A stretch of DNA of 11,576 bases from Candidatus Bathyarchaeia archaeon (GCA_050014495.1 JBEKDF010000059.1:1-11576), one strand, 5' to 3'; shown: positions 44 through 11,576, counted from the first letter of the stretch. Notes: generated by a model from the sequence alone, not told the origin. Program-made: numbers and translations.

Positions 44-122
44 GTAGACTAGTTTATACATTATTTTCATACTGATTCAAAATGAAGAAACGCGTACATA
101 TTAACTTGAGCGTACGCACGCT

Positions 123-294
123 AGCGTCCTCACCTTAATTGGCCTAGTAATCATCATTATTGTTAAGCGCCCTGCTCTTTCTCCTCCCGGCTGCCATTAT
201 AGCCGGCATCGTATGGTTCCTAACCGCAAACGAACTATTTACCGGTGTTGCCTTTTTCCTAGTGGCTATATTCTCCTTGACCCAGAGAAAATAG
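123..294 (+). pseudogene. 5'-truncated, frameshifted paralog of the small membrane protein at 5157..5375
   Basis: Translates SVLTLIGLVIIIIV(+1 at ~165)SALLFLLPAAIIAGIVWFLTANELFTGVAFFLVAIFSLTQRK*. By hand alignment it is 43/56 aa identical to the intact copy and has no start codon. Confidence 0.9.
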
Positions 295-354
295 AACTCA
301 TCAATATTTCTTTTTATAATTTAGAACTTCTATTAGTTGAATCTAGGGTGAATC

Positions 355-870
355 GTGTTGGTTGATAAAAATAATACAACTCCCTTTGTTAGAGCAGTCG
401 ATAATGAAGTAGAGGAAATATCACAGAGAATTCTAACAGAGCTTGAAAGCGCGACTTCCACAGATTTATCCGACGCTACGTATGCAAATATGATATTACA
501 GTTATCAGACATTAATTATACAAAACATATGCTAAAACAGGTAGAAAGTGTAGCATCTGAAGATAAAAATGAGACCGGAAAAAGAGCAATAATCAAGGTA
601 CTTTTGCTCTCTATATGGTTGCAGAGACTCTACTTTATCATAAGGTCCTCAATAATGGGACTGATAAGTGGCATTGTTACAGCGCTCATAATCTTGTTCT
701 TTGGTACAATAAATGTCGTTGGCGGAATATTCATAGGTATTTTTGTGTTCGTGTTTTCGTTAGTTATCACTCGATTATTTGATGCGCAACTAATCAAAGC
801 CACGAAAAAGATCGTCGAAACTATGATTAATCACAGAGCTATACGTAATTTTATTATGAATCATTTCTAG
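355..870 (+). CDS. hypothetical membrane protein (soluble helical N-terminus, two C-terminal TM helices)
   Basis: 171-aa ORF with hydrophobic segments IMGLISGIVTALIILFFG and VVGGIFIGIFVFVFSLVI; TTTTATAA at ~312-319 upstream. Confidence 0.75.
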   Translation: MLVDKNNTTPFVRAVDNEVEEISQRILTELESATSTDLSDATYANMILQLSDINYTKHMLKQVESVASEDKNETGKRAIIKVLLLSIWLQRLYFIIRSSIMGLISGIVTALIILFFGTINVVGGIFIGIFVFVFSLVITRLFDAQLIKATKKIVETMINHRAIRNFIMNHF

Positions 871-890
871 GCAATGAATGTTTAACCCTG

Positions 891-1580
891 TTATCCGTTA
901 CTCGCGTATTTGGGTTTTCTAGAATTTTTTGTAAAAAGCCACTGCCATATGGTAATTTTCTTGGAAGGATAATGAGTCTCAGGTCGATGTTTAATCACGT
1001 CCTCAAGAACCTGATAATCGTACGTGAGATTAATCATAGATGAGCCTGAACGCGCACGTACGCCGAATACAACGACTTTGTATGGTCCTGCTTCTAAATT
1101 CAGTATTTTTGTATCTCTAGAAGAGTTCATGGTGTAATAAGCTACAAATCCTAGGCTTTTCAATAGGTCAGGTAATCTTGGGATTACTAGAGATGTAATT
1201 AGCGGGATAGAAAGACCATCAGTGATAAACGCAGTTGCGCCAGCCACGCCCAGCGTCAGTACAATACTTTTATAGAAACTATCATAAGTGGACTGCTTCA
1301 TCACCGCAAATAACGAAACCTGCTTTGTGCTTGACCACTGAACCTTTATCGTCTGCCCCTGGGAGAGTGAAAAATCTATTGTCTTGAAGGTAATCGCGCC
1401 TAGAGGGACGTTCTCAGATACTACTTTTTGAGTCTTAGTTACATACTCCTTTTCAGTATGTTGGACATCGATAATAATTGGATTAGAGTAATCTAATGAA
1501 GGCATAATTGGTAATACAAATAGTCCAACTGTCAAGAGTATGCAGAAACACACTATCAGATATATTAAATAGGTTTCCAA
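891..1580 (-). CDS. membrane-anchored hypothetical protein with a probable beta-sandwich (GOLD/jelly-roll-like) domain
   Basis: 229-aa ORF with an N-terminal TM helix and beta-strand patterns (FSLSQGQTIKVQWSS, LNLEAGPYKVVVF, INLTY); TATA-like TATATTTA (minus) at ~1615-1622. Confidence 0.7.
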   Translation of the reverse strand: METYLIYLIVCFCILLTVGLFVLPIMPSLDYSNPIIIDVQHTEKEYVTKTQKVVSENVPLGAITFKTIDFSLSQGQTIKVQWSSTKQVSLFAVMKQSTYDSFYKSIVLTLGVAGATAFITDGLSIPLITSLVIPRLPDLLKSLGFVAYYTMNSSRDTKILNLEAGPYKVVVFGVRARSGSSMINLTYDYQVLEDVIKHRPETHYPSKKITIWQWLFTKNSRKPKYASNG

Positions 1581-1687
1581 TTTAATATCACTCGATAGAT
1601 ATTAAACTATCAAGTAAATATATGAAACCTTTTCATCATGGCATGCGCGTGCGTGCTCATATTTCAAGTGTCCTTTATATGGAGTAA

Positions 1688-1818
1688 ATGAATACACTGA
1701 ACATGAATCAATGTAAACGCCTTGAAGATATTTGGACGATTTTAATAAAATACGGTTTTCGGAAAAGTTGTCATGGAGATAATTTCAATCACTACGAGGT
1801 TTAGGTTGAGAGCTTGGA
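1688..1818 (+). pseudogene. relic 5' end of an ABC1/UbiB-kinase paralog
   Basis: KRLEDIWTILIKYGF matches KRAQEISAILTKYGF of the intact kinase (9/15 identical). After a +1 T in the run at 1756-1759 it continues GKVVMEII, versus EIVLLDIF in the intact gene. It ends at the ACGCGCGCGCAT tract. Confidence 0.6.
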
Positions 1819-1841
1819 ACGCGCGCGCATCTAGAAAGTCA

Positions 1842-3467
1842 CTATGAGGTGGGAAGTCTCACCGTAAAGGTTGTACCCTCGTCAAACTTGGACTCGAAGC
1901 TCACTGCACCACCATGCGCATCCACAGCCATCCGAACAAAGTAAAGTCCGAGCCCAACACCCCCTCTCTTAGTAGTGAACAGTGGCTCAAAGAGATGCTT
2001 CTTGTCTTCTTCCTTCACCCCGATACCGGTATCACTGACCTCAACAACCACATCCTCACCATCTCGCCTAGCCGAAACCGCGAGCCTACCCCCATCAGGC
2101 ATCGCCTCCACGCTATTCCGAACCAGATTATCGAGCACCCTACGAATCAAGTCAGGGTCAACAGACACATCACTCAGTCTCTTACCCAAGTGCATGTCGA
2201 GGGTAACATTCCCGGGTCTAGGCATCGTCTCAACAACCTCCTTAACCAGAGATGATAGATCCACCTTCTTCTTGACAACCCTCACCTCTCTAGTACCCTC
2301 CCTGAACGCCTCAATCATCTGGAGGGACCTCTCAGCGTTGTTAGAGATCAACCCCAGCATCTTATCTGAGAGCTCTTGCTTCGCCTTTGCCATCTCCGCT
2401 GCCTGACTGATGGCCACAAGCGGCCCGCGAAGATCATGCGCCACGGTCGCCCCAATCCTGCTAATCGTGTCCATCTGCTCTAACCTACGGAGCCTCTCCT
2501 CGCTATCATGCAGCTTAGCCTCCCCATTCGCCACCAAACCCTCAAGTCGATTAGCGTGTTCCTGCACATCTTCCCTAGCCATTGCTAACTCTATATTCGA
2601 CACCTGAAGCCCTGCATTGGTCTCGGTCAGCTCCTTATTGGTCGCGGACATAACCGATTCAGCTTTCTTCCTCTGAGTGATGTTATCGAATATGGCGACG
2701 AAGTACCCATCCTTCGGGCTGTAGGCAGAGATCGATAGCCACATCCTTAGTGGTTTGAAGAAGAGCTCAAAGGTCTCGGGGTGCCCGGTTGAGGCGACTC
2801 TTCCATAGGTTTCGATGACCTCGGGGTTTCCCTTTCTGATTCCCGGTATAGCCTCAGAGACCTTCTTTCCAATGACTTCCTCCCTCTTCAAGCCGGTTAG
2901 CTTCTCGAAGGCATCATTTACTTCTAGGTAGATGAAGCCCTCTGGTTTGCCCTCTTTGTCGTATATCATCTTGCAGTAGGCGAAACCGTCCAGCATGTTG
3001 GAGAAGAGGATGTGATACTTGTCCTCACTACTCTTGAACCTATTTTCCGCCCAACTCTTCTCTACGGCGTGTCTGATCCTTCTTGCCAGTACTTTGTAGT
3101 GGGCTAGGTTCGGCTCCTTCTTGACGTAGTCGTCGACGCCGATGGCGAATGCGGCTGATGCCACTTCCTCGCTTCCTCTTGCGGTGTAGATTATGAAGGG
3201 GATTGTTTTCGTCTTCTTTACCTCGGCGCAGAGCTGTATTCCGTTCATCCCCGGCATTACGAAGTCGGAGACGATGCAGTCGATTGTTTGATCGGATAGA
3301 TGCTTCAGGGCATCTGCTGGCGTTGGTGCCAATGCTATAGTGAAGGCGGGATCGGCTTGCTCTAGATTCAGCTTCGTAAGCTCCATTTGGCTGGGCTCAT
3401 CGTCGACTAGAAGTACTCTAATTGAGTTTTCAGCTAGAGGGTCGTCTTCGATCAACGCATGAACCAA
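1842..3467 (-). CDS. hybrid sensor histidine kinase (REC-PAS-coiled coil-HisKA-HATPase)
   Basis: REC: VLLVDDE, IVSDFVMPGMNG, DDYVKK. PAS: VNDAFEKLTG...EVIGK. H-box VAHDLRGPL, N-box DNLVRNS, G1 DTGIG, F-box LFEPLFTTK, G2 GVGLGL. Confidence 0.96.
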   Translation of the reverse strand: MVHALIEDDPLAENSIRVLLVDDEPSQMELTKLNLEQADPAFTIALAPTPADALKHLSDQTIDCIVSDFVMPGMNGIQLCAEVKKTKTIPFIIYTARGSEEVASAAFAIGVDDYVKKEPNLAHYKVLARRIRHAVEKSWAENRFKSSEDKYHILFSNMLDGFAYCKMIYDKEGKPEGFIYLEVNDAFEKLTGLKREEVIGKKVSEAIPGIRKGNPEVIETYGRVASTGHPETFELFFKPLRMWLSISAYSPKDGYFVAIFDNITQRKKAESVMSATNKELTETNAGLQVSNIELAMAREDVQEHANRLEGLVANGEAKLHDSEERLRRLEQMDTISRIGATVAHDLRGPLVAISQAAEMAKAKQELSDKMLGLISNNAERSLQMIEAFREGTREVRVVKKKVDLSSLVKEVVETMPRPGNVTLDMHLGKRLSDVSVDPDLIRRVLDNLVRNSVEAMPDGGRLAVSARRDGEDVVVEVSDTGIGVKEEDKKHLFEPLFTTKRGGVGLGLYFVRMAVDAHGGAVSFESKFDEGTTFTVRLPTS

Positions 3468-3663
3468 TTAAAATATTTTGGGTAGACGTTATTTTTAAAT
3501 GTAACTTGGTTAGAAAACGCGCACCCCGCGACTCTTTACCTGAGAAACACCTCCACTTAGCAACCCTGTAAACAATCATCAAAGCGAAGCGCAAATTTAA
3601 TCGACAAAACAACTTGTGCGTGCATAGATCCAATATCAATACTCGAGCTTAGCTGCTTACAGA

Positions 3664-4590
3664 TTATTTCTTAGCCAAATATTTTAACTGAGATAGAAAC
3701 GTAGCCATCATTAAAAGCAAAATGCTAGCCCCAATAAACAATATACCAAGATACATGAACGAAAAAGAGAGATAATTAAAAGGAACAAAAATATCCAAAA
3801 CAGTGAGCCCAAACCCGGCGATAGCTAAGATGAACCCGGAGAGGTAAGAGTAAAACATCAGAGGGTTATGCATCCTACTAAGCTTAATAATACTAGACAT
3901 TATCAGGAACCCGTCTCTAAGTGGATCGAGCTTCTGCACACCTACGCGACTACTATACGATATCGGGACCTCAGCAACTCTATTAGACGCAGCGGCCTGA
4001 GCCGCGATCTCCACCTCGACATCGAAGCCACCGGTTTCCAGAACCAGCTTCTTCGCGAAGGAGGTATCGAGAACATATAACCCTGAGCAGACATCAGTGA
4101 GCCTAGTTCCATAAGTAATATTGAATATCAGGTTAATCACGTTGTTTCCAAGGCGATTAAGTAGCTTAATGTTGGCCCTGTCTCGCCTAGCCCCAATTAC
4201 CTGACTATAGTACGGCGCCTTTTCGAGCAGCGCCTCGATGTCCCTCGCCGAGTAGGTACAGTCGCCATCAATGACTCCGAAGTAGGGGGTCTCGATGTAG
4301 TTGAGTGCCGTCTTTATGGCGCCTGTCTTGCCCCTGCCGCTCTGAGTGTATATGGGAACCCGCATTTTTTCAACTATCTTGACGGTTTTATCGGCCGAGT
4401 TACCGTCGATGACCAACGTTTTTGGGTATCCCTCGAGGAGTACATCTTTTAAAACAAGTTCAATTGCATTCTCCTCGTTTAGGGTTGGAATTACGATTGT
4501 GACATCCTCTTTTTTGATTCGATTTCTGCTCGCCTCATTGATGAAGGTTGAATTGAGGTGAGGGGGATAGTTTTCGGAGTACATTACCAA
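3664..4590 (-). CDS. GT2 glycosyltransferase, DPM1/AglJ-like polyprenol-phosphate sugar transferase with two C-terminal TM helices
   Basis: Motifs VTIVIPTLNEE, IDGNSADKT, DGDCTY (DxD), TDVCSG, GFDVEVEI, EVPISY, KLDPLRDG. Start is TTG 4590 or ATG 4584. Confidence 0.93.
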   Translation of the reverse strand: MVMYSENYPPHLNSTFINEASRNRIKKEDVTIVIPTLNEENAIELVLKDVLLEGYPKTLVIDGNSADKTVKIVEKMRVPIYTQSGRGKTGAIKTALNYIETPYFGVIDGDCTYSARDIEALLEKAPYYSQVIGARRDRANIKLLNRLGNNVINLIFNITYGTRLTDVCSGLYVLDTSFAKKLVLETGGFDVEVEIAAQAAASNRVAEVPISYSSRVGVQKLDPLRDGFLIMSSIIKLSRMHNPLMFYSYLSGFILAIAGFGLTVLDIFVPFNYLSFSFMYLGILFIGASILLLMMATFLSQLKYLAKK

Positions 4591-4707
4591 TCACAAAGTT
4601 TTGCTCTGGTCTAAGTATGGTTTCTTTGGGAATCCGTGTTTATGAATCTCGCGTGCGCGTTCGCTCGATTACACTCGTGCATTCGTGTAGGGGAAGGTGG
4701 ACTGAGT

Positions 4708-4787
4708 TTGGGAGCGATTGTGATGATAAGGATATACAAGGAGATCATCGCCATCTTCACTAAGTATGGGTTCGTGATCGTGGTCTC
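4708..4787 (+). pseudogene. second relic 5' end of an ABC1/UbiB-kinase paralog
   Basis: EIIAIFTKYGFVIVV matches EISAILTKYGFEIVL of the intact kinase (11/15 identical). It is preceded by SD-like GGAAGGTGG and TTG 4708, and homology stops at the TGCGCACGT tract (4788-4796). Confidence 0.7.
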
Positions 4788-4862
4788 TGCGCACGTTGCT
4801 TATATAAACAGGGATTAAAGAAAAATAAATTTGGGTCAGGGAATAGTTGCATAGGGTAACGG

Positions 4863-4870
4863 TTTATAAA
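4863..4870 (+). promoter_or_regulatory. archaeal TATA box for the lmo0937-family gene
   Basis: TTTATAAA ~36 nt upstream of ATG 4906. Confidence 0.6.
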
Positions 4871-4905
4871 CATTCATTACTAAAAAATAATCGGGATGAT
4901 CTAGC

Positions 4906-5067
4906 ATGGATCTCTTCTGGACAGTAGCGGCGATACTCGTGATTCTCTGGTTACTGGGTTTCATCACCGGAATCGGGGGAGAGTTAATTCACATCTTAAT
5001 AGTTATCGCGATAATCGTTGTGGTCATAAGGCTCCTACAGGGAAGGAACGTTGTCACGGGTAATTGA
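4906..5067 (+). CDS. lmo0937-family (DUF5670-like) small membrane protein, 53 aa
   Basis: MDLFWTVAAILVILWLLGFITGIGGELIHILIVIAIIVVVIRLLQGRNVVTGN* fits the family pattern LWLLG...GGxxIHILLV..I...L.G. It is below the ORF-track size cut-off. Confidence 0.9.
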   Translation: MDLFWTVAAILVILWLLGFITGIGGELIHILIVIAIIVVVIRLLQGRNVVTGN

Positions 5068-5156
5068 CGACACGATTGAAAAAATGAAAAAAAAATGTTA
5101 AATGGGATGGTGAGAACTCGGTGTCGCTTAATAATTGGTTAGTCATGTTGTCTTCG

Positions 5157-5375
5157 ATGCTTGTAAGCCAGGTTGGCCTCGCGATGGAGACTATAATAGC
5201 AGCAGGCGTACTCGTCTTAATCGGTCTAATAATCATCATGGTGGTAGGCGCCCTCCTATTTCTTTTGCCGGCGGCCATTATAGCTGGCGTCGTTTGGTAC
5301 CTAACAGCTAACGAGCTCTATGCAGGTGTAGCCTTCCTCCTAGTGGCTATCATCTCCTTAACCAGGAGAAAATAG
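5157..5375 (+). CDS. small hydrophobic membrane protein (2-3 TM)
   Basis: Part of track ORF 5121..5375. TTAATAA at 5128-5134 favours a start at ATG 5145, 5157 or 5184. The paralog at 123-294 differs mostly at third codon positions, which supports coding status. Confidence 0.85.
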   Translation: MLVSQVGLAMETIIAAGVLVLIGLIIIMVVGALLFLLPAAIIAGVVWYLTANELYAGVAFLLVAIISLTRRK

Positions 5376-5422
5376 AGTCCATCGATACACGTTTCGCGAA
5401 TATTAGACAATATCTAGTACAC

Positions 5423-5791
5423 TTACTTGAAATCCCTCGTTATTTCTCTCATGGCTTCGATAATCTTTCTGGGATCAGCTGGTTTCTCGAAAACGTACTT
5501 GAACTTGTCAAGCTTCCTCGCATCAATAGCCTTTAGAAAACCCGTCAACAAGATGACCCTCATCCCCGGATATTCAAGCTTGATCCTATCAGCCAACTCA
5601 TCCCCCTTCATGTCGGGCAACACGAAGTCCACTATAGCTGAAGCATATTTTCTATCCTTAATCCACTCAAGTGCGGCCCAGCCACTGTAGACGACATCAA
5701 CATTGAAGCTCTCACCCTCCAGTATTCGCTTCAATAATTGAGCTTCTCTCTCGTTATTTTCTACTAGGAGGATGGGTGGATTACTAGTCAT
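5423..5791 (-). CDS. stand-alone response regulator receiver (CheY-like)
   Basis: ILLVENN, phospho-Asp in IVDFVLPDMKG, LLTG, EKP. Confidence 0.93.
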   Translation of the reverse strand: MTSNPPILLVENNEREAQLLKRILEGESFNVDVVYSGWAALEWIKDRKYASAIVDFVLPDMKGDELADRIKLEYPGMRVILLTGFLKAIDARKLDKFKYVFEKPADPRKIIEAMREITRDFK

Positions 5792-5819
5792 TGCATCTAT
5801 GTTATTCGTTGTCTTGAAT

Positions 5820-5845
5820 AAAAAAAAGTCGCTTAAGAGCGGACT
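5820..5845 (-). terminator. possible hairpin + T-run terminator
   Basis: Minus strand reads AGTC-C-GCT-CTTA-AGC-GACT followed by T7-8. Confidence 0.35.
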
Positions 5846-5882
5846 CTATATATTATTTCGTGTACGCGCGCATTCGATCTGG

Positions 5883-6559
5883 ATGATAGAGGATGATCAA
5901 AAATAAGCGAATAGCCTTATTTCTTTAGGAGTAGTTTTAGGAACCCTATTTGTCATACTTGATGTTTCAGTCTTCCTCGGACTCACACAATCTGTTGATA
6001 AAATCTTTTTCATCGCTGTAAACCAGTGGAACCCTTCACCGATCCTTGACGTAATAATGATTAGCCTAAGCCTCTACGGTAGAGAAGTCGTTTGGGTGGA
6101 CTCATCATCGCATTCCTCCTCTTCGGAGACGAGAGACAAAAAAAGAACGGGCTGATGCTCCTGATTCTCTTTATTGTATTAACCACTGCCGGAGAAATAG
6201 TTAAGATAGTTGACTTCAGGATTCGACCATACGACGCGCTTTCCAATGTTCGTCTACTAGTCTCTCCTGAGATGGATTCGAGTTTTCTATCCGGCCACAC
6301 GCTGATAGTCGTAGGGGGAGCGATCGTTTCTCTGATCAGAATGAATAGAAAGTGGGCTTTCTTATTGACGGTTGAAGCAGCTCTCGTTTCCTTCTCAAGG
6401 ATCTATGTCGGTGTTCACTATCCCACTGATGCTCTAGGAGGCGCTCTTCTGGGTGCCTCTGGAGCGTTGATACTTTGTTCAAGACCGGAGTTAATTGACG
6501 GGGTTTATCGGAGACTAACCTTACTTTCTTCAGCATCAAACAAAAAGTCGCGCATGTAA
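5883..6559 (+). pseudogene. PAP2-family (undecaprenyl-PP phosphatase-like) membrane phosphatase, disrupted
   Basis: ATG 5883 gives MIEDDQK*(TAA 5904)ANSLISLGVV...DKIFFIAVN...LDVIM...YGREVVW. A -1 shift at TGGG 6093-6096 leads into track ORF 6092..6559 with KxxxxRxRP, SFLSGH (canonical SFPSGH) and SRIYVGVHYPTD. Confidence 0.85.
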
Positions 6560-6927
6560 TCCACGAACCTCTTCAAGGGTAATCGTACATACCTCGTGAA
6601 ATCCGGCGAGGGTTGAAAGACCCCTTGCCTCGTGAGCTCAAAACCCAAGCCCACGTAGTCATCCACGACAGCGGCCTTAATCATCCTCACACCACTGAGT
6701 CTAGCCGCCTTGAAGCGATGATGACCATCTAGAACCGCGTAGATCTCCTTATGCGGGTGCTTAATGACGATGATAGGTTTCAACTTAGATAGATCCATCT
6801 CAGCGAGCCTCTGCACATAATCATCATCAACATCCTCGTCACAGACAACCTTGTCGATTGGTAAATCAACCGCGTATTTGTCAGGTCTAGTGTAGGCTCG
6901 TATTAGGTCCGTCATACCCGCTGACAT
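6505..6927 (-). CDS. stand-alone ParB/sulfiredoxin-like N-terminal domain protein
   Basis: PIIV...YAVLDGHHRFKAARLSG...IKAAV motif, with no HTH visible. Its 3' end overlaps the PAP2 3' end by 55 nt. Confidence 0.85.
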   Translation of the reverse strand: MSAGMTDLIRAYTRPDKYAVDLPIDKVVCDEDVDDDYVQRLAEMDLSKLKPIIVIKHPHKEIYAVLDGHHRFKAARLSGVRMIKAAVVDDYVGLGFELTRQGVFQPSPDFTRYVRLPLKRFVDYMRDFLFDAEESKVSLR

Positions 6928-7023
6928 TAACTAAAAAGTATTAAAAATAGTTTTATTCATAAAATTAAGGCACATATCAAATACGCCTACGGTTCAGCAG
7001 CGTGATCAGAATTGGAATAGCTC

Positions 7024-7440
7024 TCATGCGCGCGCGTTTTCACTGGACTCAAGCAGCTCCACCCAATCCCAATGGTAACGAGTGTTCGGTCTCTTCTCCG
7101 CCACGAACTTGTAGGCTGCCTTGTAATCCATCTTATACTTCTTACTAACATACACACTCGCCAGGAACGGCGTTCGGTTGATGCCAACGAGACAGTGAAT
7201 CAATATCTTCGCGTCGAGATCCGATAAGGCGACAAGAAGCCTTGCGGCTTTAAGGATCTTGCTGGGGATAGGACGGTTTTCGTCGAGAAACCCAACGTGC
7301 ACAGTTTCAAATAGAGTCCTTGCATCTACGATGAAGTCAACACCCTGTTCCCTCAGCGCATCGACGTAATATGCATCTATTATGTCTCCGACCCCGATAC
7401 AGTTATCAATCCAATTCAAATGCGCACGCTCAACCTCCAC
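7024..7440 (-). CDS. dual-specificity/PTP-like phosphatase (CX5R)
   Basis: ILIHCLVGINRTP signature plus AYKFVAEKRP. An in-frame upstream ATG at 7473 is separated from the ORF by a TAA. Confidence 0.88.
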   Translation of the reverse strand: MEVERAHLNWIDNCIGVGDIIDAYYVDALREQGVDFIVDARTLFETVHVGFLDENRPIPSKILKAARLLVALSDLDAKILIHCLVGINRTPFLASVYVSKKYKMDYKAAYKFVAEKRPNTRYHWDWVELLESSENARA

Positions 7441-7724
7441 TAGTTTGGGCTGAGGTTATGAAGGCTTCTCCATGGTCGTGCACATACGAGATGCGCGCGC
7501 GATTCCCTGGATCATCAAGTAGAGGTTCGCACTAACACTAACCTACACACGCATAGTATCTTGCTTCCTGAAGCTAGATTATCTTCATAATATCCTTCAA
7601 ACTCCCACTCCCCCTAACACCCAATAATTGAGATGTTTAGCGTTATTTGAATCCGTTCACCAAATTACATGACGAAGCATAACTTAGATATTCCCCGATC
7701 CCTCGACACTACCTGGTTGATTGT

Positions 7725-8087
7725 TTGTCCACACCAGATGACGTGAAGAAATTACTCGCCCCAGATGAGAAGGTTGAGATGTATGTCAAGCAGAAGTTCT
7801 ACCACCCCAAGATCAGCATAGACTCCCTGGTAGTCACCAACGAGCGTGTAATCCTCAGGCACCCCCATGAGCTGAATCTGAAGAAGGATTACACCGATTA
7901 TAACTACAGGGACATCGCCAACGTGGTCCTGGAGAAGGGAGTTAAGAGGTCAACCATCAAGCTGACCCTCAGGCTTGGGGGAGAGCCGCTTGATTTGAGT
8001 GATATGCCTAATTCCGACGCGGAGAAGTCTTACGGAATCATCAGGGAGTACATCGAGAAAGCTAAGGCCCCCTCACCAATCAGCTGA
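7725..8087 (+). CDS. bacterial PH-domain protein
   Basis: LLAPDEKV...SLVVTNERVIL...YNYRDIANV...STIKL pattern typical of bPH domains. Confidence 0.88.
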   Translation: MSTPDDVKKLLAPDEKVEMYVKQKFYHPKISIDSLVVTNERVILRHPHELNLKKDYTDYNYRDIANVVLEKGVKRSTIKLTLRLGGEPLDLSDMPNSDAEKSYGIIREYIEKAKAPSPIS

Positions 8088-8164
8088 TATTCTAATTAAA
8101 ATTCTCGTACGCTCGTGGAGGACCTATTTCTTTTCTACCTTTTTTTCGCCTTTATGGCGACTGT

Positions 8165-8341
8165 CTATACTGCCTTCTCAGTCTTTGTAGCTCCACTTTT
8201 CACGTCTTTCTCAATAGTTCCACCCGTCTTCTCTACTCCCTTCGCTACACCTTTCTCGAACGCTTTTGCTACCTTTCCGATAGCTTCTCCAGCGTTTTCA
8301 ACTCTCTCCTCGATTGTCTTCTTTTTCTTCTCGTTAGACAT
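8165..8341 (-). CDS. small LEA-like/hydrophilin protein with 11-residue repeats (58 aa, possibly C-terminally truncated)
   Basis: MSNEKKKKTIEERVENAGEAIGKVAKAFEKGVAKGVEKTGGTIEKDVKSGATKTEKAV*, with TTTATTAA (minus) at ~8374-8381. Track ORF 8115..8363(+) is its antisense shadow. Confidence 0.8.
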   Translation of the reverse strand: MSNEKKKKTIEERVENAGEAIGKVAKAFEKGVAKGVEKTGGTIEKDVKSGATKTEKAV

Positions 8342-8571
8342 GTTATTTCAAAAGGAGAATTAAGAGAAGATTGTTAATAAATGTGCACTCGCGGTGTACT
8401 CTCAACAAGCGGATCGTTATCTGGGCTATTCAATTGTCATTTATTTAGAAATAACTTGTATATTGCGAAGGGCGCGCACCTGCATATATTGTCTCAATGC
8501 ACGCTTGGAAAAAACACCATTCTATAATACGCGCGCGCATTTTCGATTCGATTTAAGGAGCTTGAAGGTCG

Positions 8572-8742
8572 CTATTCTTTAGCTTTTCTCTTTATTTTCC
8601 CGACTTTTTCTTGAACGTCCCCTTTGGCTTGCTCAATCTTGCCTTTGACCTGTTCTGTTTTGTTATCCGTTATTTTGCCTACTTCTTCACGGATCTGTCC
8701 CTTGATTTTCTTGCCTCTTCCCTCTACTTCGTCTTTGCTCAT
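8572..8742 (-). CDS. csbD: CsbD family general stress protein (56 aa)
   Basis: MSKDEVEGRGKKIKGQIREEVGKITDNKTEQVKGKIEQAKGDVQEKVGKIK matches the CsbD pattern. Start is ATG 8742, with TTTATTAA (minus) at 8765-8772. Confidence 0.93.
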   Translation of the reverse strand: MSKDEVEGRGKKIKGQIREEVGKITDNKTEQVKGKIEQAKGDVQEKVGKIKRKAKE

Positions 8743-8818
8743 GATCGCATGATAACAATGGTGGTTAATAAACAAACGAAGAGCCTAACGATTCGTGCAT
8801 GTATGCGCATATTGAGGA

Positions 8819-9076
8819 TTACTGTTTTTTAGATGAATTAGAGAGTGCACCGTAGATAATCAGACCAAGGCCAACAATTATAGCAACGATTGATCCTATA
8901 ATGTAAATTTGTAGATTGTTATAACGCTGTTTTAGCGCTGGGTCCAAAGCTGTACCTATTTGACCTAGTACTGTTGATAGGTTTTGGTAGTCGGACCAGA
9001 AGTAAAATATGCCAATTGCTCCAACTGCTAGAAGTATTAACCCTATGAATAAGACTACAGTCTTCATAGAATTCAT
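8819..9076 (-). CDS. small two-TM membrane protein
   Basis: 85 aa with two clear hydrophobic helices flanking a short loop. Confidence 0.8.
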   Translation of the reverse strand: MNSMKTVVLFIGLILLAVGAIGIFYFWSDYQNLSTVLGQIGTALDPALKQRYNNLQIYIIGSIVAIIVGLGLIIYGALSNSSKKQ

Positions 9077-9146
9077 TAGGAAATACAGGGAATTAAAGAT
9101 AGGTGAAATCTAAAACCGCGCGCGATTTCCTTTTCACTCATTAAAA

Positions 9147-10814
9147 TTACCTGAAGAAAAGATACAAGATTACACCGGATAGAATAACGATGCCAAGTAA
9201 AATCCTGTTAGCGGCACTCTTCACAGCGGTCCCAATACGATCTCCAAGACGATCAACATCATCATCCGTTAGTCTGACAATAAGATTTCCGTTTGCTAGA
9301 ACCCTGCTTGCTTCGTTAACACTATGTGGCATCCTAGTAACTTCCTGTGTTGTATCGGGGAGATTGTAAACAATCTTTGTCACTTGGCTGACAATCCTGT
9401 CCTTTACGATCTCACCCAGATAGGGCCTAACCTCAACTAGGAAATTAAACCCTGGATAGATATTCAAACTATAGTCACCGATCATCATGATTACTTTTAT
9501 CATCAGCATAGCGACCATTGGAACTCGCAAACGATACTTTCGCAGGGTATTGGTAATCGCTAAAAAGGCTTCTGTATCAGGTTTATTAGGATCAATAATC
9601 TTGACATTTTGGCCCTCAAGGAGATTAACATAGAGGTCATCCTTAAACGACTCGATCCATGCGTCATTAATCTTCATGCCCAATTCATTAAACACGCGAA
9701 CTAGCTCGTCAACATCGGCATTGAGAACTCCGGTTAGCATTCTTAGTAAGAGATCCCTTTTCTCAGGGCGAAGAATGCCTACAAGGCCAAAATCTAGGAA
9801 TACAATATCACCATTCTGTGTAACCAGAAGATTGCCCGGATGCGGATCTCCGTGGAAAAATCCATCTTGAAATATTTGTTTCAAATAAGCATGTAAACCA
9901 TTACGAGCAACATCTTGGGTATCAATTCCCATACTTTTCATTCCAACTACATCGTCTATCCGAACTCCGTATATATGCTCCATCACTAATAGACGACTTC
10001 CAGAAAACTCCCAATAGATTTTAGGAATTCGAATGCCTTTCATTCCTTCCATATTCTTTGCTAAAAGTTCAGCATTTTTTCCGTCTCTAGTGAAATCGAG
10101 TTCAGAAGTAATCTGTTTAGAAAAATCCTCAACTATCCCGGGAAAATTGTAGATATTTAAGTCATATAATGCGTCAAACTTTTTGGCTATGAATTTTAGT
10201 ATGCTTAAATCTATAGCAACTTTCTCTCTTATATCAGGACGCTGTACCTTCAACACGACATCTGAGCCATCTTTCAGTTTTGCTTCATATTCTTGACTGA
10301 GGCTCGCTGCCGCAAAGGGACGTTCATTCAAATAGGTAAAACTCTTTTCGATTGGGGCATACTCCTCAATTGTTGCCTTAATTTCTTCAAATGACACAGG
10401 CTCTACTTTATCACTAAGCATTTTCAACTCTTTAATCAATTCGGCTGGCAACGATTCCTGACGAGTGCTCATTATCTGGCCAAATTTGACGAATACTGGG
10501 CCAAGCTCCTGTATAGCAAGACGGAAACGTCTGTAGATGTTGAGATTAGCAAGATTAGGATCCTGTTTAAGAATCTTCGCCTTTATGCCCTTCGGAACCA
10601 GCTTCGGGATAACGTCTGGAATAGCTATGGGAATAATTTCCGGTGCAGGGATAGTATCATATCTATGAAAACTTTCCTTTATTCGTCCTTGGAAAATGTC
10701 TAATAACACTATCTCAAAACCATACTTCGTTAGTATGGCAGAGATTTCTTGCGCACGTTTACGACGACTATAAGGATGCGTTACAACCATTCTAGTCACA
10801 TCATTAATATTCAC
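9147..10814 (-). CDS. ABC1/UbiB/AarF family atypical protein kinase
   Basis: Motifs ELGPVFVKFGQIMSTR, AAASLSQ, LKVQRP, ELDF, FFHGDPHPGN, DFGLVG and a C-terminal TM helix. The real start may be ATG 10790. Confidence 0.96.
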   Translation of the reverse strand: MNINDVTRMVVTHPYSRRKRAQEISAILTKYGFEIVLLDIFQGRIKESFHRYDTIPAPEIIPIAIPDVIPKLVPKGIKAKILKQDPNLANLNIYRRFRLAIQELGPVFVKFGQIMSTRQESLPAELIKELKMLSDKVEPVSFEEIKATIEEYAPIEKSFTYLNERPFAAASLSQEYEAKLKDGSDVVLKVQRPDIREKVAIDLSILKFIAKKFDALYDLNIYNFPGIVEDFSKQITSELDFTRDGKNAELLAKNMEGMKGIRIPKIYWEFSGSRLLVMEHIYGVRIDDVVGMKSMGIDTQDVARNGLHAYLKQIFQDGFFHGDPHPGNLLVTQNGDIVFLDFGLVGILRPEKRDLLLRMLTGVLNADVDELVRVFNELGMKINDAWIESFKDDLYVNLLEGQNVKIIDPNKPDTEAFLAITNTLRKYRLRVPMVAMLMIKVIMMIGDYSLNIYPGFNFLVEVRPYLGEIVKDRIVSQVTKIVYNLPDTTQEVTRMPHSVNEASRVLANGNLIVRLTDDDVDRLGDRIGTAVKSAANRILLGIVILSGVILYLFFR

Positions 10815-10829
10815 GAAGCACGCGATGTT

Positions 10830-11357
10830 TCATTTCGTATACTCACTTACGGCGAAGACCGCCTCGACGAGTTTGGCAGCCTCCCTGATAAAGTCCTCCT
10901 CAGCGAGGTCGATCCAATCAGGGCCGGTAATAACCCCCCTAAGGTATATGGTCTCGATGAAACTACACCCTCTCTCCTCTGCCCTCCGTCGCAGCTTTTC
11001 AACGGCTTCAGGATTTGTTTCGTTCGCTCCAACTAGCCCCAAGATAACTTGTTTACCCTTGAGATCGATCTTCTCGAGGAAATCCATCATGGCCAAAGTT
11101 GGTCTTCCCTCCCAGACAGGTGTAAGCAGTATTATTGGGTTGAATCCCTCAAGAGTTGTGAAAGGTACTTTCACGTCATCGTCCTGTTGAGAATAGCGTT
11201 TGTGCTGGAACATATCCCTCCAGTCATTTGGTTCAATTAATCTCCTACTTTCAGCTTTTATTGTTGGTAGAATGATCTCCGCAATCTTCGCAGTGGTACC
11301 TGTTTTAGTGTAATATATGACGAGAGGTTTTAAGATCATCATAACGATTAACTGCAC
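10830..11357 (-). CDS. flavodoxin-like protein
   Basis: LVIYYTKTGTTAKIAE (FMN phosphate loop), TPVWEG, DLKGKQV. The start is more likely ATG 11342 or 11339. Confidence 0.85.
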   Translation of the reverse strand: MQLIVMMILKPLVIYYTKTGTTAKIAEIILPTIKAESRRLIEPNDWRDMFQHKRYSQQDDDVKVPFTTLEGFNPIILLTPVWEGRPTLAMMDFLEKIDLKGKQVILGLVGANETNPEAVEKLRRRAEERGCSFIETIYLRGVITGPDWIDLAEEDFIREAAKLVEAVFAVSEYTK

Positions 11358-11388
11358 ACGATTGTAAAAACATGATCACTCACTTTAT

Positions 11389-11433
11389 AAAAAAATCTCG
11401 CAAGCGAGATGGGGTGTCACTTGCAAGACTCCC
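11389..11433 (-). terminator. hairpin + T7 terminator-like element with alternative folds
   Basis: Minus strand TCTTGCAAGTGA pairs with TCGCTTGCGAGA (12 bp, 2 G-U) and is followed by TTTTTTT. Confidence 0.5.
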
Positions 11434-11576
11434 AAATAATTAATAGATTTAGCACGCGCTGGCTTGTCCCGAAATTCATCAGGGCTAATATAAGCTTATT
11501 TTGATAGTTGGGGTCTCGTCCCCCAATGGTCTGCCTAACCCTAGGAGGTGAGTTCACTTAGGACAAGATGAACACG

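Follow-up and report, generated by a model that had tools for sequence, protein, structure and literature searches.

Short Alternating C-G Runs at DNA Joints in a Family of Bathyarchaeia Suggest a Form of End-Joining Repair

INTRODUCTION

New nucleotides at mended DNA breaks are known as the N nucleotides of TdT, as the templated insertions of Pol theta, and as telomeric repeats inserted at breaks; the cyanobacterial HIP1 element is an octamer of constant sequence that recurs throughout coding DNA and is linked to a methyltransferase. In Saccharolobus/Sulfolobus, the consulted parts of two reports describe Ku-independent end joining by the primase PriSL, which acts by terminal transfer and anneals ends via 2 to 4 G:C pairs, leaving C/G-biased insertions of mostly 1 to 2 nucleotides (nt) (CC, GGC, CGG, CCG), with less-efficient pairing at five or more G:C pairs (PMC3333859, PMC12019639). 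Here we examine short alternating runs of C and G in an 11.6-kb stretch of DNA (GCA_050014495.1 JBEKDF010000059.1:1-11576; "the window" throughout), which is the complete contig C59 of a 3.1-Mb, 92-contig Candidatus Bathyarchaeia genome (G000) with an archaeal 16S gene. We find that these runs are very probably scars at DNA joints rather than a conserved signal at gene boundaries, and we lean toward the view that they are left by end-joining repair in which a host polymerase adds short alternating C-G tails to broken ends.

The runs share with PriSL end joining an archaeal setting, a proposed route of terminal transfer and annealing, and C/G overlap at the joint, but the filler here is an alternating run of 7 to 10 nt and not the 1 to 2 nt given in the consulted parts of those reports. 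Ku/LigD nonhomologous end joining, known from bacteria and Methanocella, has its genes in G000, but in several run-rich genomes Ku or the polymerase was not found. The likeness to TdT and Pol theta lies in new letters at the joint that would make the sealing pairs, but those enzymes are eukaryotic and N regions are random; interstitial telomeric repeats offer a parallel for a fixed repeat left as a scar. HIP1 and the runs are both overrepresented short palindromes, but the runs are neither a fixed octamer nor spread through coding DNA, and no C5 methyltransferase was found in 5 of 5 genomes. An insertion sequence (IS) at the end of the window, whose CG flanks would suit a 4- to 6-bp duplication, fits the group that we take to be IS5/IS1182-like, but most joints have neither an element nor a donor target.

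According to the consulted part of one survey, prokaryotes generally suppress GC and purine-pyrimidine (RY) alternation (PMC4060949). An initial annotation of the window had considered its alternating tracts to be undescribed in archaea, and we likewise found no literature on an element of this type. Our search, in which supplements were left unread, returned no description of such runs in Bathyarchaeia, and the genome lists of bioRxiv 10.64898/2025.12.30.697008 and PMC12699852 might hold an entry; Bathyarchaeia are unmentioned in the searched parts of a Z-DNA survey, a short tandem repeat survey, and an archaeal IS survey.

RESULTS AND DISCUSSION

An excess of short (CG)n runs in the window and across the genome

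Strict RY-alternating runs in the window numbered 27 at a length of at least 9 nt, 19 at 10 nt or more, 12 at 12 nt or more, and 5 at 14 nt or more. None of 500 dinucleotide shuffles matched these counts (means of 6.5, 1.4, and 0.3 for at least 10, 12, and 14 nt, respectively), so the excess of runs of at least 12 nt that had been estimated by hand is genuine. The four tracts quoted in the initial annotation (1641 to 1656, 5859 to 5873, 8527 to 8540, and 8794 to 8812) are all present, and, as it had claimed, 11 of the 12 runs of at least 12 nt lie at a gene edge or outside genes, the exception being 1050 to 1063. An assembly artifact is ruled out, as contigs from sequencing runs X3, X8, and X9, which belong to three studies, none of them flagged as the source, cross eight of the tracts (beginning at 1641, 1819, 5859, 7420, 7491, 8527, 8794, and 9117) with no differences. 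The density of runs in the window is one of the two highest among the 92 contigs. The proposal that such tracts mark almost every gene boundary describes accessory regions well but fails for the genome as a whole, in which 9 to 18% of gene gaps contain a run of at least 7 nt, and the reported tendency to be followed by CGAT or TTCG did not extend genome-wide (5.5% of 1,288 flanks within 10 nt of a run, compared with 4.7% of 20,000 random noncoding 10-mers).

When hexamers were counted against a Markov background, as had been proposed, GCGCGC ranked first genome-wide; GCGCGCGC is likewise the top 8-mer, with a 17-fold excess (1,024 occurrences versus 60.5 expected, both strands, order-3 Markov). 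The core of the signal is pure (CG)n of 7 to 10 nt, and the wider mixed runs of the window vary in length and phase. Pure CG runs in G000 numbered 481, 186, 192, 144, 111, and 5 at 6, 7, 8, 9, 10, and 11 nt, respectively, forming a plateau at 7 to 10 nt with a sharp fall above 10 nt, whereas AT, AC, and AG runs decay geometrically with length. Outside gene calls, which make up 83% of the genome, lay 527 of the 645 runs of at least 7 nt (82%), noncoding shares here being somewhat too high because the calls came from a simple dicodon model that overlooked several window genes. Run density peaks in convergent gaps (1.46 per kb, versus 0.81 and 0.94), and many runs lie within 30 nt of a stop codon. 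GCGC and CGCG are slightly depleted in coding DNA (0.85 and 0.92). No flank consensus was found past 1 to 2 nt, where an A or AT tends to follow; the base after a terminal C is A in 61% of cases.

Runs lie at joints and are foreign to the donors

We compared each run with donors, defined as nonidentical copies aligned to one side of it, and asked whether the donor carried the run. When the genome was aligned to itself, an alignment end lay within 10 nt of 91 of the 613 non-IS runs of at least 7 nt, compared with 10 to 34 in ten shifted controls. Seen from the other direction, a run of at least 6 nt was present at 36 of 228 alignment ends (≥90% identity) in the same copy and at 65 of 228 in either copy, while the frequency at random noncoding sites was 3.0%. 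Among 1,475 run sides queried, 218 had a nonidentical donor, 28 of these being IS ends, and for the remaining 190 the run was absent from the donor in 138 cases, present in 37, and mixed in 15. The donor match extended as far as the run on 64 sides, and there donor and run overlapped by 0, 1, 2, 3, or 4 nt in 23, 29, 7, 4, and 1 cases, respectively; thus, no more than 1 nt was shared in 52 of these 64 cases, and the alternation is mostly continued by the first base added.

Deletions provide the most direct view of a joint. Of the 27 colinear events, 6 were clean deletions; among the others, 15 left the length unchanged, 3 were self-matches, 2 were small insertions, and 1 had an RY run at the donor end. 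The same-length "replacements," at first read as scars, were rejected as codon changes. In the six deletions, 26, 200, 321, 321, 457, and 3,458 nt were replaced by 7 to 14 nt, the lost piece had no run at either end, and two lost pieces had no 4-nt CG run at all. The run is absent from both parental sequences in these six cases and also at two-donor joints. A close strain (sequencing run X14) has 83 nt in the histone-rpS17e spacer where G000 has 25 nt beginning at a run, and G002 and G012 diverge at the same letter as these two. Both TATA-like boxes of that spacer are present in 12 of 12 genus members, but a CG run is present in only 3 of 12, at two places.

Sixteen segments of 62 to 908 nt have a run at both ends, and for about 10 of them, as judged by eye, the donor has neither a run nor an IS end. 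Cuts fall at arbitrary places, mid-gene as well as between genes, and three phosphatase copies are cut at different positions. Across 303 runs there was no excess of target (direct) duplications or of hairpin symmetry. A second template for the extra letters beside runs (≥8 nt plus run) was not seen in a weak search, all 11 G000 cases occurring at their own site only. One option in the initial annotation was that the tracts are recombination scars bounding promoter-plus-gene cassettes; the scars are indeed at joints, but they do not bound such cassettes, as the cuts are arbitrary and occur within genes.

Distribution among relatives

The signal is lineage-wide. Across the 61 genomes compared, which include family f1, counts of GCGCGCGC ranged from 0 to 512, and 10-mers were present in most of f1 and, among 24 genomes outside it, only in G051. 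In G021, which belongs to another genus and is assembled as a single contig, similar runs occupy AT-richer noncoding places in regions that were picked for containing 10-mers. Control loci from Methanomicrobiales (1.2 Mb) held 21 runs of at least 7 nt and none of 10 nt. Several genus members share the steep fall in counts beyond 10 nt, which is weak in G016, G021, and G032, and the preferred phase differs by species, G first in G000 (99 versus 54 10-mers) and C first in G007 (7 versus 48). This phase, C first in G007, G013, G009, and G023 and G first in G000, G005, and G021, is a possible fingerprint of whatever writes the runs. We also observed that the GC content of genus member G001 is 33% (835 kb examined), compared with about 49% in G000.

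A possible mechanism and its writer

In end-joining repair with tailing, a break would be resected to an arbitrary point, consistent with the cut placement observed. A tail would then be added, mostly such that a C or G at the end is extended in alternating order and sometimes after 1 to 4 other letters, which is the pattern that the junctions display. As (CG)n is self-complementary, a tailed end could pair with any other in either orientation, alternating CG being the shortest strong self-complementary tail, and the overlap, about 7 to 10 bp judging by the observed lengths, would be filled and sealed. Harmless scars would persist, piling up in the spacers and accessory regions where the runs are found, decaying to RY runs, and serving as landing sites for one IS family, while selection would clear scars out of genes and promoters. 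The longer mixed runs may derive from transitions, which keep the R/Y alternation, and from repeated events at one place, and the length limit may reflect either counting by the enzyme or loss of Z-forming runs.

Several observations weigh against this reading. A run of at least 6 nt is lacking at about 7 of every 10 recent alignment ends, and on 89 of 153 sides the run is preceded by 1 to 15 additional letters, some of which may be scraps of captured DNA. The donor tally (138, 37, and 15) includes overlapping-locus duplicates and some codon coincidences, 15 of the 27 colinear events are same-length and mostly codon changes, and 3 of 10 deletions are self-matches. A donor without the run means that the run is foreign to that donor, which is not proof of an untemplated origin, and both sides are traceable at only a minority of joints. 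The length limit is not universal (11-mers versus 10-mers, 9/101 in G013, 7/55 in G007, 45/138 in G016, and 21/63 in G021). Known primase insertions are 1 to 2 nt rather than alternating tracts in the consulted part of PMC12019639, and none of nine writer candidates tracked the runs.

These candidates were drawn from repair and polymerase genes. In G000, the genes for Ku, a ligase-phosphoesterase, and a LigD-type polymerase lie side by side in a complete cluster (G000:C3:63436-67463). However, Ku was not found in G021 (one contig, 92% complete), G028, G032, G033, or G051, and the LigD-type polymerase was not found in the run-bearing genera g5, g6, and g12. Ku and the LigD polymerase are also present in G001 and G010, which are nearly run-free; these two genomes are weak negatives for tracking of the trait, and the 33% GC of G001 is a confounder. 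PolX was found in 40 of 61 genomes, including run-free ones, with a conserved PolX-PHP organization and no telling residue change among 16 aligned sequences. A reverse transcriptase (RVT_1) was found in 0 of 5 genomes, the Y-family polymerase DinB was absent from G000 and found in 1 of 36 family members, and Cas1 was found in 2 of 5 genomes. An extra 438-amino-acid primase-like gene has close copies in 5 of 61 genomes; a PolB3-sized gene occurred only in G026 and G027 of 10 genomes and is also missing from run-poor G001, G024, G036, and G039; and neither of two Mre11 types tracked the runs. A gene-loss screen against G001 (835 kb of about 1.8 Mb) returned 34 genes, none of them evidently a polymerase or ligase by eye.

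The replicative primase PriSL would be the default candidate, solely on the grounds of its universal presence and of such activities in Saccharolobus. PriS was found in 5 of 5 genomes, and its universality makes it nondiscriminating; an alignment of 10 PriS sequences had no obvious difference between run-rich and run-poor genomes. Quite tentatively, we raise the idea that one family of Bathyarchaeia has a dedicated tailing enzyme, which would make strictly alternating C-G without a template, halt near one helical turn, and provide every broken end with a universal self-complementary linker; the linker would drive fragment capture and shuffling, keep a legible trace of hundreds of earlier breaks, and have been taken up by the IS family as a safe place to land.

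Several of these gene families were noted in other settings. Of the 17 other members of the genus, 14 have the LigD-type polymerase, as does one other genus of the family. Additional primase-like genes, of AEP (archaeo-eukaryotic primase) type, occur at G000:C20:26047-27366, with copies 68 to 74% identical in four genus members, and at C53:7058-7864, beside an integrase-like gene. Stand-alone Cas1 genes are present as six copies or fragments in G000 (C80, C18, C46, C6, C79, and C24), several of them cut by CG runs or IS ends, and as four in G016. G000 also has two unrelated NurA-HerA-Mre11-Rad50 sets (C2:92203-98407 and C9:4130-10600), and a third Mre11 type, 26 to 29% identical to the resident one, is apparently present in four genus members (G016, G013, G007, and G005).

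Alternative explanations

We regard it as unlikely that the runs instead stem from the IS whose end lies at 11459 to 11576 (+ strand), where the contig breaks. This multicopy element has terminal inverted repeats and a DUF772+DDE_Tnp_1 transposase, and the runs might be ends that it left, footprints of its excision, or duplications of its target, and the deletions would extend outward from the break that excision makes; in a variant, transposition itself may write CG. The explanation is kept alive by the IS range, which broadly matches that of the 10-mers: the IS is found in f1 and, of the 24 genomes outside it, only in G051, which also counts against tailing as the source. Moreover, CGCG or TGCG follows 52 of 54 genuine-looking IS ends (65 motif hits, judged by eye), the CG flanks are retained in members down to about 32% identity, the single GCGCGCGC in G001 adjoins an IS end, and a 4-bp duplication plus one flanking base per side makes 10 nt. 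The mean IS flank of about 6 nt per side (99 ends) fits an element that enters 7- to 10-nt runs and duplicates about 4 bp. Three of the four two-ended copies in G000 require a 6-bp duplication; with one of 4 bp, their empty sites would be 11 to 12 nt, longer than most runs. No true empty site was found, either paired among the 99 ends or in four sequencing runs compared over C34.

On the other hand, contact with an IS end is limited to 32 of the 645 runs. Footprints would require a CG target at the cut, but donors overlap the run by 0 to 1 nt at 52 of 64 sides and two lost pieces have no CG 4-mer, and two excisions would be required for every small fragment bordered by a run on either side. 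Transposase genes, too, have been cut by deletions sealed with CG (C33:31597 and C76:6510). Presence of the element and abundance of runs also match poorly within the family, as the single-contig G021 (250 8-mers) has only broken, distant IS remnants and G015 (177 8-mers) has one weak hit, whereas G025 has a full IS copy (71% identical) yet only 12 8-mers. An insertion in G016 sits in a 430-nt deletion whose ends have no target, as expected for landing in an older scar. The IS inserts into runs and probably follows them rather than making them. We also observed two elements with IS inverted repeats but without transposase, C34:18634-19054 (420 nt) and C79:7078-7544 (466 nt), the latter with a small helix-turn-helix-like open reading frame.

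A little less likely still is that the same end-joining route uses copied filler, a broken end being primed through 1 to 2 nt by a (CG)n run already present or capturing a short CG oligonucleotide; joining would follow from self-complementary copies only, such that scars would propagate themselves with ordinary enzymes. Copying would account for the lack of a dedicated gene that tracks the trait, the 1- to 2-nt C/G overlap, the A/AT bias beside runs, and lengths that rarely exceed those of existing runs. However, it leaves the origin of the first runs unexplained, and the extra letters were found at their own site only (11 of 11 G000 cases), with no excess of hairpins.

It is very improbable that the runs are functional signals, whether elements that mark the borders of genes as Z-DNA, by positioning nucleosomes, or by binding proteins, or fragile Z-DNA sites at which breaks arise, and as an account of origin this reading, two of the options in the initial annotation, is largely refuted. 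It could draw on the 82% noncoding share, on the many runs near stop codons, and on a putative histone-like gene of G000, and Z-DNA instability could explain the missing runs above 10 nt; (CG)n is the best Z-former in the consulted part of PMC4060949. However, run positions are not conserved where promoters are (both spacer boxes in 12 of 12 members, a run in 3 of 12), intact donors without a run are the opposite of what fragile sites would give, and most runs are shorter than one Z-helix turn. A Z-alpha domain was not found in G000, G016, or G021, and the flanks have no consensus.

HIP1-like methylation-directed repair, another of those options, or microsatellite slippage is scarcely credible in spite of a short palindromic core iterated across the genome, since length and phase vary, the core 4-mers are depleted in coding DNA, no C5 methyltransferase (PF00145) was found in 5 of 5 genomes (N4C and N6A types were not searched), AT, AC, and AG runs decay geometrically, and neither process predicts coupling to deletion joints. 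An integron- or CRISPR-like cassette border was rejected, as there is no flank consensus, the 62- to 908-nt inserts are cut mid-gene, and Cas1 was not found in G021 or G032.

Joints and other features of the window

The window is an accessory region of small modules, including histidine kinase, glycosyltransferase, response regulator, PAP2, phosphatase, PH-domain, CsbD, ABC1 kinase, and flavodoxin. The closest named relatives of the ABC1 kinase are Candidatus Bathyarchaeota (86 to 94% identity), and the sequencing runs that contain the stretch are mostly peat metagenomes. Donors stop at, or a few bases from, the runs that begin at 110, 1641, 1819, 7025, 7420, 8472, 9117, and 10818. The run at 110 to 122 ends a multicopy 122-nt contig end that is common to C30 and C76 and includes another run, identical in both, at 90 to 101; C30 diverges directly after 122. 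Next, at 124 to 294 (+ strand; repeat D1/D6, 79 to 82% identical), comes a copy of the small membrane-protein gene of 5157 to 5375 that is truncated at its 5' end, cut at this run, and the paralog at 5206 to 5387 is alignable from 124 onward. At the joint of 1641 to 1656, two relatives without the run diverge at 1636-1637, and G012 has the common ATGCGCG core plus 8 extra nt. The (CG)n run at 1819 to 1830 marks a synteny break; G012 does not have it, and its alignment stops 6 nt short.

The (CG)n run at 7025 to 7037 cuts the 3' end of a dual-specificity-phosphatase gene, whose paralogs (C25 and G016) continue past the cut and have their own runs 13 to 14 nt further on. The remaining fragment (PF00782; 7038 to 7419, - strand) has a run on each side, and its donors (C25, L282, and L057) are longer at both ends. 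The RY run at 7420 to 7429 is the exact stop of three donor alignments and is absent from all three donors. Across the (CG)n run at 7491 to 7501, one contig of sequencing run X10 (depth 3) has 26 extra nt including a shorter GC run. The CG/RY run at 8472 to 8479 lies exactly at the end of two donor alignments, with 1 nt of overlap. Two joints are not pinned: the (CG)n run at 8527 to 8540 lies 21 nt away from where the CsbD module alignment ends, and the long degenerate RY run at 8794 to 8812 is 17 to 21 nt past the end of that of the CsbD promoter. The (CG)4 at 9117 to 9124, absent in G012, is the 3' border of the ABC1 kinase module, which meets the flavodoxin module at an RY run (10818 to 10824) that three left donors do not have. 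The CG/RY run at 11452 to 11458 is the insertion site of the IS.

Two further runs are codon coincidences rather than scars, namely, that at 1050 to 1063 in gene 891-1580, for which relatives have same-length codon variants, and that at 10750 to 10758 in the ABC1 kinase gene, which is conserved or codon-variant in relatives. In G016, gene 891-1580 is interrupted midway by a 12-nt run. No donor was found for the intergenic RY runs at 3615 to 3626, 4650 to 4660, 7477 to 7488, and 7544 to 7555 or for the intergenic CG/RY run at 5859 to 5873.

Apart from the runs, the PAP2 phosphatase gene (5893 to 6559) is apparently split by a frameshift near 6090, with its ATG at 5893 and the Pfam match in the frame of 6092. 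A second dispersed repeat of about 25 nt, which may resemble a cassette or dif-like half site, occurs in small contigs of G000 (C15, C16, C24, C29, C50, C53, C74, and C75), with no exact core in the window. Its 84 exact-core and 136 relaxed copies recur every 0.5 to 1.5 kb, often just upstream of genes of a small membrane-protein family.

Implications for break repair in Bathyarchaeia

The runs bear on how most archaea repair breaks without Ku: in a large lineage of uncultured sediment archaea, the product, a fixed self-complementary filler, is preserved in the genome. Across the family, the runs can serve to mark where DNA once broke or was rearranged, and they point to a transposon specialized on repair scars. 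If an enzyme writes the filler, it would be both a new nucleic acid tool, in the form of a universal linker for any two ends, and a novel way by which genes are captured and accessory regions become mosaic.

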